64,000 bases of DNA from an uncultured delta proteobacterium (GCA_963767925.1 CAVYGB010000002.1:1120001-1184000), one strand, 5' to 3'. Shown: positions 39,001-42,000, numbered from the stretch's first letter. Numbers: made by a program.

Positions 39001-42000
39001 CGTGGCTCGATCAGGTGGCGCAGTCGTACAACGTGCTCGCGATGAACGCCGCCGCCTTTCGGGCATGGGCCAAGCTCATGCATCGCCGTTCCGACCAGCT
39101 CCTCGAAGACGCGATGATTGCGGCAACCGCGCAGGTCCACGGGCTGATCGTGGTAACGCGAAATGTCCGCGACTTCCGGGCGCTGGGCAGCAAGACGGTC
39201 AATCCGTTCCAGACGCCAAGGTGACCAGATGAGGTGACAGAGCCGCGGAGCCCACTCCTGGGCTCCACGCAGTCGCGACCATGGTCGACCGCAGGAGCCC
39301 CGCGGTATCTTCTCGAAGTGAAGCTCAGCGCTAGCCACCTCCACGGAGACGGTCCCTCAGGCTGGTGAAAATCATCGTCACCCTGGCGAAGCAGCACTAC
39401 CTCTCCGCACTGGCGGCGCAGCGGAAGCCGGCATCGTAGGCCACGTAGGGTTTGGTGGGGTTGTTGCGGTTGTAGATGCGCGAGAAGAACTCGTAGTCGC
39501 GCCAGCCGCCGCCCTTGATGACGTGCCCGCGCGCACCGGGGCACCGCCGGGCGCCGGGACAGGGGCCGCGCGGGTTGCGGCCACCCGCCCCCGCCCGCGA
39601 GACCGCCGCGACGTACCAGTCGCTGACCCATTCCGGAACGTTGCCGGTGAGGTCGCAGAGGCCTTCGGATGAGCGCCCCTTCGGGCGGCTGCAGACGGGG
39701 CGGGTGAAGGGCCGGTCGGCGGGTCGATCGCCGGCGCACGGGTCGGACGGCTCTCTCGTCAGGGTGACCGCCTGCTCGCAGCGGGGAGTGCCGGGGTCGA
39801 GGCCCCAGGGGAAGACACGGCCGTCGGGCGTGGGGCCGAGTGCCGCCCGCTCCCACTCCGCCTCGGTGGGCAGCCGCTTTCCCGCCCACCGGCAATAGGC
39901 GCTGGCCTGCTCCCAGGGTACGCCGCTGACCGGGTGCTGCTCGCGGCCGGGCAAGCGCGAGTTGACCTCCCCGGCTGGACTGGGCGCGACCTCCGTGCAG
40001 GCGCTCGCGGCCACGCACCGTCGGTACGCCGCCACCGTCACCTCGGTGCGGTCAATCCGGAACGGGTCCAGGCACACGCGCCGCGCGGGCCCGGCCAGGT
40101 CCTTCTGGCACCCTCTCTTCAGCCCGCACCCCACTTCGAGACACCCCCCCGAGATCTCCACCATCTCCGCCTCCACCCCCAGCGGATCCGCGCCGCCAAC
40201 CGCCGCCTTCGCCCCCTGCGTGGCACGCGCAAGGGCCGGCGCGAGCAGCGCCGCGAGTGCTACTCCTGCCAGCCAGGCGCGGTGGTCGGACATCAAGGAT
40301 AGAGCTCGGGGTGGCGGACGCGGAGCACCTCGTCTCGGCGTTGCGCGAGGGCGGAACGCTCGGAGTCCGGGAGGTCGGCGGCAGCGAGGGCGTTCTGCAG
40401 ATCCTGGTAGTAGCGATCGAGCCGAGGATCCTGGGCACCAGGAGCCAGAGTCCTGCGGCCACTCTGGTATTCTGCCCAGACCCCCTCGCTCCCGCGCAGG
40501 GCGTCCTGGGCGTCCAGCCAGGTGAGGCTCGGGAACCGCTGCTCGCCGTCGACGATGTTCCACGAGGCCGCGTGGCTCCCGCTCGGGTCGACCCGACTGG
40601 GGTCGTCACCGTCGGTGCGGGTGGCCCAGCTGCGCAGGTGCGCCGGGGCGGCGGTCTCGGCCAGCGGGCTGGTGCCGTTGTAGGCCCAGAAGCTCTTCAG
40701 GTTGGGGAGATCCCGCCGGAACTGGTCGAGCTCGTTCGGCTTGGCCGAATAGCAGGACGACATGGCCAGATGCTCGATCTTGCCCGCCCCCTCGGGGAAG
40801 ATCTTGGCGATGTCCCGGATGGTCTGGTGGTCGATCCAGCCCGAAGCGCCGTCGCCGCTGACCGAGTCGCCGCTGCCGTGGCCGGAGATGACCAGCCGGT
40901 TGGCCGCCAGGTCCCCGGAGCCCATCCGGTGCAGCGCCAGCGCGAGCTGGGCCAGCTCGTCCCGAGTGTTCACGTCGACCCGGCCGAGCCGGTCGATCAG
41001 GGCGTCGGCGCGTGCGGCCGGGACCCTGTCGGGGCCGCCAACCAAGGTGTCCCGGAAGTCCCTGCGGCCGGCGTCGGCACCGAGGTCGAAGCGGCGGCCG
41101 TCGTAGTCAACCTTGCCGTCCGAGGCGTGGGCCTTGATCGCGTGCACGCCACCGCCGGCCGGTGGAGTCTCGGCCCGTAGTGCGCGCACTTCCTGCGAAG
41201 AGGCTGGCCGCATCCCGAGGTGGACGATTCCCTGCGATCGGGCGGCCAGTCGGCGGCTGGTAACCTCCTCTTTCAGCTTCTCGTATGCCGCACCAGCGAC
41301 TGTGGGTTGCGCATCGGCGGCAGTGCTCTGTTTGAAGGCGAACGACCGGGAGGATCCGTTCGCGTCGGCCTGATCGATGAGATCGAACAGGGCGCCCATC
41401 TCATTCGCGCCCCGGATCTGAGCGTCCGTCCCGGCGATCCTTTTGAGATCTGTCGCGTCGATGCCGGCGTCAAGGAGCTTCTGCCGCAGCCCGGGCGGAA
41501 GATCGTTGAGGTTGAGCGACCCGCCATCATCTCCCAGGTCGCGGATAAACTCGCTGCGCGTGATGTTGTTGGACATAGGAGAGGCTCCTGACCGTCGACT
41601 CTGTTCGCAGCTTAATCGGATCCCAGCCGGGTAGGTTGCCAGTGGTCACAAGATTCCGATGGATAGGAGCCGGCCCCCTCGCGAATGGGTCGCTCTCAGC
41701 TTCGCTGCCCGCCGGCGCCCTGACGTCGACGGCGCCGGTGTCTCCGGGTGGGCGAAACTAGCGCCGTGATCAAGTTCGCTACTGGTGTCGCCTTTTGGGT
41801 GAGCTCAGGTTCCGCTCCGACACCATCCCGGTTCGACGGGGACCCCAACAGCATCTCCGGTTTCCACGAAGACCGCCGCGCACCCTGGGGTGATCCGCGC
41901 AGGTACCCGCTCGAACGAGTGAGCGGGTCGGCCTCGCAATCCTGTCGGTTCACAGGGGTGGCTCGCGGCCGCCCGCCCGGGCGGGAGCGCTGGTCTGGGG

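Follow-up and report, generated by a model that had tools for sequence, protein, structure and literature searches.

C-terminal caspase-like domains on PVC/eCIS carriers were proposed as toxins in 2012 (Zhang et al., PMC3482391). The accessible part of that paper describes the Tox-Caspase domain as having a caspase-like fold with a histidine and a cysteine residue, and gives a PVC/eCIS metallopeptidase (eCIS_core), T2SS, T6SS or T7SS as its routes. Its immunity protein is Imm36, and nearly all immunity proteins are called cytoplasmic there, whereas the partners of the family described below are exported and of eight kinds. FGE and the EF-hand are not mentioned in this part of the paper, and the carrier of the protein analysed here, P0001, is EF-hand-like; the supplementary alignments of that paper may overlap the P0001 family. 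Two putative cysteine proteases of the Pseudomonas aeruginosa H3-T6SS, Tce1 and Tce2 (PDB 9qpe; PMC13323088), have a clan CD-type His-Cys core, an N-terminal extension and no signal peptide, as P0001 does. As far as the available text on them goes, they differ from the P0001 system in that they are Hcp cargo, that no immunity gene accompanies them and that Tce2 is antifungal; no Hcp is found in the genome analysed here. Tce1 is reported in the same text to have no antibacterial effect when expressed in E. coli. FGE-like proteins have been published as T6SS immunity proteins, as an earlier note on this locus stated: according to the accessible part of the preprint (bioRxiv 2021.05.21.445229), Tsi3 proteins have an FGE domain without catalytic cysteines, adjoin an effector of unknown function and protect by binding. 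Tsi3 genes are found on the opposite strand and in most cases form arrays, and 98% of the genomes are T6SS-positive. The FGE gene described here, in contrast, is single, co-directional and coupled to the effector gene, and no T6SS (Hcp, VipB) is found in the 83.8%-complete assembly. The SitA escort-domain toxins of myxobacteria (PMC10433427, accessible part) resemble the P0001 system in their constant N-terminal module, variable toxic C-terminus and scattered, mobile effector-immunity loci. SitA proteins are lipoproteins with nuclease tips that act in the cytoplasm, whereas P0001 has no lipoprotein signal and the partners are exported. Published C39 toxins likewise act in the cytoplasm, according to the available parts of the two reports (10.64898/2026.05.07.723447; PMC12136450).

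The window, a stretch of 64,000 nucleotides on contig C2 of a 9.34 Mb assembly, derives from a host that is probably a myxobacterium, judging from the Atlas taxa and the names of the FGE homologs. The candidate effector gene is an ORF of 427 aa at positions 41576-40293 on the minus strand, on which all features of the two genes lie. It encodes an N-terminal EF-hand-like carrier module (aa 1-115; 41232..41576), a clan CD (caspase-hemoglobinase) core (aa 115-345; 40542..41234) and a C-terminal three-helix cap (aa 353-421; 40314..40520). The predicted catalytic His233 (codon at 40878..40880) ends the motif R-L-V-I-S-G-H, and the predicted nucleophile is Cys275 (codon at 40752..40754); both assignments are based on the alignment and the model. 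A candidate immunity gene (40293-39397) encodes an FGE-sulfatase protein of 298 aa with a signal-peptide-like N-terminus (PF03781, E 1e-45). The TGA of the effector gene and the ATG of the FGE gene share one base (TGATG overlap), and the FGE gene thus lies directly behind the effector gene (g01441), as the earlier note had reported. The cassette adjoins a pair of genes that we take to be a PIN-type toxin-antitoxin pair. A 44-bp direct repeat on the plus strand, with its left copy at 38784..38827 and its right copy at 41871..41914, flanks the PIN-toxin gene, the FGE gene and the effector gene. The two copies are identical at 39 of 44 positions and are the only ones in the genome when up to 10 mismatches are allowed; this repeat pair is possibly an insertion scar. 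The Rfam scan of positions 28000-46000 of the window detects a group II intron domain only.

P0001 belongs to no Pfam family, as noted before, and to no NCBIfam family either; the sole Pfam match is HAMP at E 0.035, which is under the cut-off. Neither a signal peptide nor a lipoprotein signal is found in P0001; among the distant homologs, L039 has a lipoprotein-type signal at its N-terminus. When 1.84 billion representatives are searched with phmmer, 541 homologs are obtained at E<=0.001, which reproduces the earlier count; these are unannotated clusters at 50% identity. The plasmid search gives no match. Among the best 150 of the 541 homologs, R227 is conserved in 145 of 145 aligned rows, C275 in 147 of 149 and H233 in 141 of 146, with Glu replacing His233 in 4 rows. 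The dyad, previously described as invariant, is therefore near-invariant only. The CHAT profile (PF12770) does not match P0001 above its curated cut-off. Its best match among 97 homologs comes from one homolog only (E 0.0017; 18.3 bits against a cut-off of 24), and at E<=0.5 it matches 3 of 76 homologs. The Peptidase C80, C11, C14, C25 and DUF4347 profiles match neither P0001 at E<=1 nor any of 97 homologs at E<=0.01, and the best match of the family profile in a PDB sequence search is no better than E 0.3. The nearest named Atlas clusters (0.80-0.85), taken as leads only, are CHAT, C11/clostripain, C80, DUF4347, Stv and DUF6345, which have the same fold and dyad order as P0001 (CHAT as SAVED-CHAT) but give no profile match above cut-off.

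The P0001 model, built on 76 sequences, has a pLDDT of 95.7. When it is compared with known structures by VIA-align, SAVED-CHAT is the top match (Z 12.2, rmsd 3.1, 165 aligned), followed by C11 proteases (Z 10.5 and 10.1) and, at rank 4, by the nearest effector, Tce1 of a T6SS (Z 9.7, rmsd 3.6, 154 aligned, 16% identity). Further top rows are caspases, gingipain, GPI transamidase and legumain. The best 11 rows are all of the clan CD type (Z 12.2-8.9), and unrelated Rossmann-like rows appear from Z 8.7; a CHAT-type domain, from the anti-sigma factor DdvA, is matched at Z 8.5. The high-confidence clan CD fold reported before is thus reproduced. Foldseek gives nothing at E<=0.001 against the PDB, although its top matches are the same as those of VIA-align, and against the viral library it places a clostripain-like protein on top (E 5e-5). 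In the model, His233 directly follows core strand 225-231 and Cys275 directly follows core strand 269-273. These results support well the assignment of the modelled domain, by fold and dyad, to the clan CD cysteine peptidases, and P0001 is probably an active peptidase. The family fits no named family, having inserts of its own and a helical cap and carrying no sensor domain.

The N-terminal carrier module is absent from the earlier note. Acidic loop residues (D51, E59, D68 and D71) and G74 are conserved in it, and a helix-loop-helix pattern is predicted in the P0001 model. We take the module to be EF-hand-like, presuming that this pattern and the loop motif identify an EF-hand. The module has no Pfam match, and the EF-hand profile matches 1 of 76 homologs at E 0.03. 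It matches nothing in the Atlas, and its best match among PDB sequences has E 0.13. A single-sequence model of the module has a pLDDT of 52 and gives a mixture of EF-hand and CARD rows at Z<=5.1; a CARD-like fold, the top row, was rejected as being within noise for a model of such low confidence. The module is common to several C-terminal domains. It also heads C39-like peptidases at 6 loci (2 of 2 scanned are above the Peptidase_C39_2 cut-off), a CHAP-like domain at L054 (E 3.5e-4, under the cut-off), an HTHP-motif domain at L084 and a helical protein at L073. In the genome analysed here, it precedes a CHAP-like domain at C1:216161-215334, which by eye resembles L054. Of the nine module-bearing siblings with downstream DNA, eight are followed, as judged by eye, by an exported-type ORF that starts at -4 to +19; the CHAP-like sibling of this genome is the lone exception. 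Few genomes contain the module (3 of 401 from the phylum and 6 of 301 from the class), but 1-5 copies per genome are present in the five carrier genomes that were searched in depth.

The clan CD domain is also found on other carriers. Fusions to eCIS_core, PG_binding_1, SH3_3 or LysM occur in 23 of 97 scanned homologs, which were hand-picked from the best 150 of 541 with a bias to longer proteins; the fusions reported earlier thus exist but form a minority. The tally among these 97 homologs is 12 for eCIS_core, 14 for PG_binding_1 at E<=0.01 (10 of them above cut-off), 3 for SH3_3, 2 for LysM and 1 for OmpA, the last within one of the same 23. PG_binding_1, LysM, SH3_3 and OmpA are envelope-binding domains. 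P0001 itself contains no eCIS_core. Among 4178 candidates searched for fused forms with a length of 749-2135 aa, none was found, a weak result since the homolog listing contains such proteins. A constant carrier is thus found with exchangeable C-terminal enzymes, and one enzyme is found on several carriers, which is the arrangement of polymorphic toxins.

The FGE protein of the window contains 14 Cys residues. None of them follows the GGGW motif, and in this respect the protein differs from the FGE protein encoded at C8:80561. By its sequence it appears to resemble the non-catalytic Tsi3 proteins, which have an FGE domain lacking the catalytic cysteines. The genome gives 13 FGE matches in total. 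It contains three further copies of the peptidase sequence: a full-length paralog at C8:876591 with 78% identity to P0001, a paralog at C2:1977662 with 44% identity that covers aa 1-344 only and so lacks the helical cap, and a remnant at C1:273863-273464 that covers aa 295-427 in two frames and is without both catalytic residues. An FGE sequence follows each of the four copies, as had been noted. These copies belong to one cassette, one of them being short and one a remnant without the dyad, so that the four adjacencies do not represent four independent events. A signal-peptide-like N-terminus is found in all three intact FGE genes of the cassettes, and not in one only as was thought. As a reverse test, the FGE subfamily was searched in 89 family genomes with a profile that included close kin of the proteins found; it occurs at 3 places, all directly behind the peptidase.

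Downstream partners were compared across loci gathered from 61 relatives, from 401 phylum, 301 class and 89 family genomes and from metagenomes. Duplicates, the C1 remnant, L020 and L022 (<60 nt of sequence behind the gene), two fragments (L070 and L083) and five distant matches (L037-L041, of which one has a similar partner) were left out, and 33 loci were kept, five of them with <600 nt of downstream DNA. A partner was defined as a co-directional ORF of 100-400 aa that starts at -15 to +75 and has a hydrophobic N-terminus and no later membrane helix. Such a small exported partner lies directly downstream at 19 of 33 loci, as compared with 113 among 1000 genes sampled from the genome analysed here. 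Crude gene calls and a crude hydrophobicity rule underlie this test, and its p value (Fisher, 5e-10) overstates the enrichment because kin are not independent. The rule is obeyed at 16 of 30 foreign loci, and FGE is the partner at 3 of these 30 (L002, L015 and L016), where the earlier note had counted none in seven relatives. The partners that pass the rule form eight groups without a phmmer link between them: FGE (six loci), TPR (three), helical (five) and the single proteins of L005, L024, L027, L028 and L036; the L025 partner fails the rule yet links to that of L027. In a tree from a quick search only, the partner groups follow the protease clades, with the exception that the C2:1977662 paralog, whose partner is FGE, groups with the TPR clade (support, 83%). 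At L004 the partner is kept with His replaced by Glu. The remaining 14 of 33 loci have no partner by this rule, and these include the carrier-module forms L017, L019, L021 and L052.

These results indicate that FGE, at 6 of 33 loci overall, is the partner of one clade and not of the whole family. They strengthen the proposal of an effector with exported immunity, since the partner recurs in several unrelated forms, but do not bear out FGE as the cognate partner of the family. An adjacent small partner occupies the immunity position at P0001. It does so in none of the six members (0/6) of a separate clade that comprises five eCIS_core forms and one PG-binding-only form, so that these forms and the immunity-paired forms cannot be treated as one, as was done before.

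Within the family, 9 of 89 genomes contain the domain, and within the phylum 18 of 401, which is a patchy distribution. The C8 copy lies within an island with genes that, from their sequence, we take to encode an integrase, IS elements and toxin-antitoxin pairs. A lipoprotein-like ORF on C8 is convergent with an HExxH gene.

VipB, Hcp and TadE are not found in this genome, which is 83.8% complete, and neither is the eCIS tube (PF06841), in a search whose controls were silent as well. Only one marginal eCIS_core match (22.7 bits) is present, a slight exception to the earlier statement that T6SS and eCIS genes are missing. Non-flagellar T3SS genes are scattered and separate from the flagellar cluster: SctR above cut-off, an SctJ-like gene and a frameshifted SctV-like gene. 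Among carrier genomes, eCIS tube genes are matched in 12 of 20 (11 above cut-off), including all five with eCIS_core fusions (L030, L031 and L033-L035). VipB is matched in 4 of 20, including G003 and G009, whose enzyme is without the carrier module. SctV exceeds its cut-off in 6 of 21 carrier genomes, as compared with 33 of 59 genomes of the family. Because SctV is so common in the family, the presence of a T3SS does not single out this system; its co-occurrence is uninformative and was dropped as evidence. Of the machines looked for, a non-flagellar T3SS is no more than the delivery candidate that remains for P0001.

The best explanation is that P0001 and the FGE protein are probably an envelope-acting antibacterial effector and its periplasmic immunity protein. 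This reading follows from an enzyme without a signal peptide, a coupled, exported and often-replaced partner, and a carrier common to papain-fold peptidases with exported partners of their own. Its computed basis consists of the fold, the dyad, the modularity, the coupling and the partner enrichment. It is favoured by that enrichment, the eight partner groups, the FGE reverse test and the C39-like and CHAP-like siblings, and also by the envelope-binding fusions, the L039 lipoprotein signal, the patchy distribution, the C8 island and the published FGE immunity. It is weakened by the 14 of 33 loci without a partner, the partnerless CHAP-like sibling of this genome, the His-to-Glu replacement at L004 with its partner kept, the failure to find Hcp, VipB, the tube or TadE in the assembly, the commonness of SctV and the precedents of Tce1/Tce2 and the C39 toxins. 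In the mechanism that we infer for export, substrate, toxicity and inhibition, the carrier module would direct the enzyme to an export machine other than Sec, for which the non-flagellar T3SS is the candidate here and eCIS or T6SS may serve in other clades, and it may sense extracellular calcium. The enzyme would then cleave an envelope substrate in the neighbouring cell, either a periplasmic or surface protein or a peptidoglycan peptide. The FGE-fold protein in the periplasm of the producer would be a non-catalytic inhibitor, as Tsi3 is for Tse3, and other lineages may have swapped this inhibitor for unrelated exported proteins. A bolder version is rather unlikely: that a needle-less T3SS of myxobacteria uses the EF-hand-like module as its export tag, that the clan CD, C39-like and CHAP-like bearers of this module are among the lytic effectors of that system, and that peptidoglycan or some other component of the envelope is cut by the clan CD domain. 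No report of a clan CD fold cutting an envelope component was found in the literature searched.

P0001 might instead be a secreted digestive or predation protease that acts on prey or dead biomass, with the neighbour as a protective inhibitor or folding chaperone and not as kin-specific immunity. Its fold matches include secreted C11/clostripain and gingipain, and many hydrolases are secreted by myxobacteria according to the accessible part of PMC10433427. This role is nevertheless unlikely, as P0001 has no signal peptide, the distribution is patchy and mobile, and repeated swaps of the partner to unrelated families suit conflict systems better than housekeeping digestion. The rank of Tce1 among the fold matches, and the impairment of yeast by Tce2 described in the available text of PMC13323088, would fit an effector against eukaryotes such as fungi or amoebae, with an exported neighbour that is accessory. 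A periplasmic partner would be unneeded there, yet it is present at P0001 and at 18 other loci, and we consider this role improbable for P0001. It is likelier for the eCIS_core clade, whose forms are partnerless and whose five genomes all have eCIS tube genes, but antibacterial eCIS toxins too are mostly without immunity genes, as the accessible part of PMC8213781 states.

A calcium-gated processing or signalling peptidase, in which the EF-hand-like module is the switch, the exported neighbour is substrate or sensor and no killing occurs, would account for the conserved acidic loop residues and for the match to the CHAT-type domain of DdvA. Caspase-like domains in polymorphic toxins are, moreover, mostly processing enzymes in the available part of PMC3482391. 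The domain is, however, the last catalytic module, with nothing beyond it to release; hydrolases of unrelated kinds, which have partners of their own, occur on the same module; and a regulator gene is not part of the cassette in the copies of this genome. There is accordingly only a small chance that P0001 is such a peptidase. SAVED-CHAT as top fold match points towards a cytoplasmic defence or cell-death protease with an incidental FGE neighbour, and so does the adjacent gene pair, presumably of the PIN toxin-antitoxin type. No SAVED or other sensor domain is found in P0001, and the partner is exported, coupled and tracks the clades, so that this explanation is very improbable, less probable than any of the others.

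Neither the P0001 family nor the carrier module is described in the literature searched, which was mostly open-access; supplements of PMC3482391, PMC8213781, PMC11297309 and the Tsi3 preprint may list members. As far as these searches reach, the P0001 sequence family, its exported and exchangeable partners and the EF-hand-like carrier are new. Caspase-like toxin tips, His-Cys effectors such as Tce1/Tce2 and FGE-fold immunity are already published (PMC3482391 and PMC13323088, accessible parts), so that the novelty claimed in the earlier note holds for the sequence family only.

The effectors of the T3SS*/Kil killing machinery of myxobacteria are stated to be unknown in the accessible part of PMC10433427. 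The present analysis provides a short, testable list of candidate effectors for this system, with one carrier module and at least four tips, mostly with an exported antidote of their own. The partners suggest that the family acts outside the cytoplasm, whereas the characterised antibacterial cysteine-peptidase toxins covered by the literature read act inside it. Should the partners prove to be inhibitors, a single family of caspase-fold enzymes would be blocked by eight scaffolds that are unrelated to one another.

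The cassette of the clan CD peptidase gene and the FGE-sulfatase-like gene is flanked by two copies of a 44-bp direct repeat (window 38784-38827 and 41871-41914) that is unique in this genome. The left copy forms the junction of a gene pair at window 38546-39224, which we take to encode an antitoxin and a PIN-toxin. The repeat is possibly an insertion or recombination scar. A group II intron lies at window 28914-30425 on the (-) strand, with a reverse-transcriptase-like ORF (29004-30425) and an Rfam RF00029 match (28914-28990). A further FGE match at window 3357-3961 (-) is split in two pieces and adjoins no clan CD gene.

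The non-flagellar T3SS genes of the genome, SctV-like (C2:1269278-1271317, in pieces), SctR (C8:2006433) and SctJ-like (C8:3091840), are widely separated and form no single cluster. A complete flagellar cluster is present at about C8:558000-580000.

Among the collected clan CD loci, L004 and L067, of the clade with helical partners, have Glu in place of the predicted catalytic His and retain Cys. L037, L038, L040 and L041 form a distant subfamily on a long branch with the motif SGHHY...SACNTH, and L039, which carries a lipoprotein-type signal, is a distant homolog separate from them. L017 contains tandem clan CD genes (1-723 and 838-2112) without a partner, on a contig of 44% GC.

Directly behind the C8 FGE gene, a gene at C8:874130-873228 (-; L058:9228-10130) encodes a protein that contains an HExxH motif, has an N-terminus of low complexity and matches no Pfam family. 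It is arranged tail-to-tail with an exported-type ORF at C8:873223-872456 (+; L058:8456-9223). These convergent genes may represent a second pair of effector and immunity genes within the island of the C8 cassette.

The fourth carrier-module protein of the genome (C1:216161-215334, -; L057:910-1737) has a clear EF-hand-like loop and a CHAP/NlpC-like Cys...His tip similar to that of L054; a partner gene was sought downstream and none was found. At L077, L050, L051, L082, L086 and L087, the carrier module is joined to a C39-like peptidase, and an exported or lipoprotein-type gene follows in each; three copies are in genome G655. The downstream proteins have no Pfam match (two scanned) and appear to constitute a single exported or lipoprotein family. 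Together with the carrier module/C39-like peptidases, they look like a second candidate effector-immunity family.
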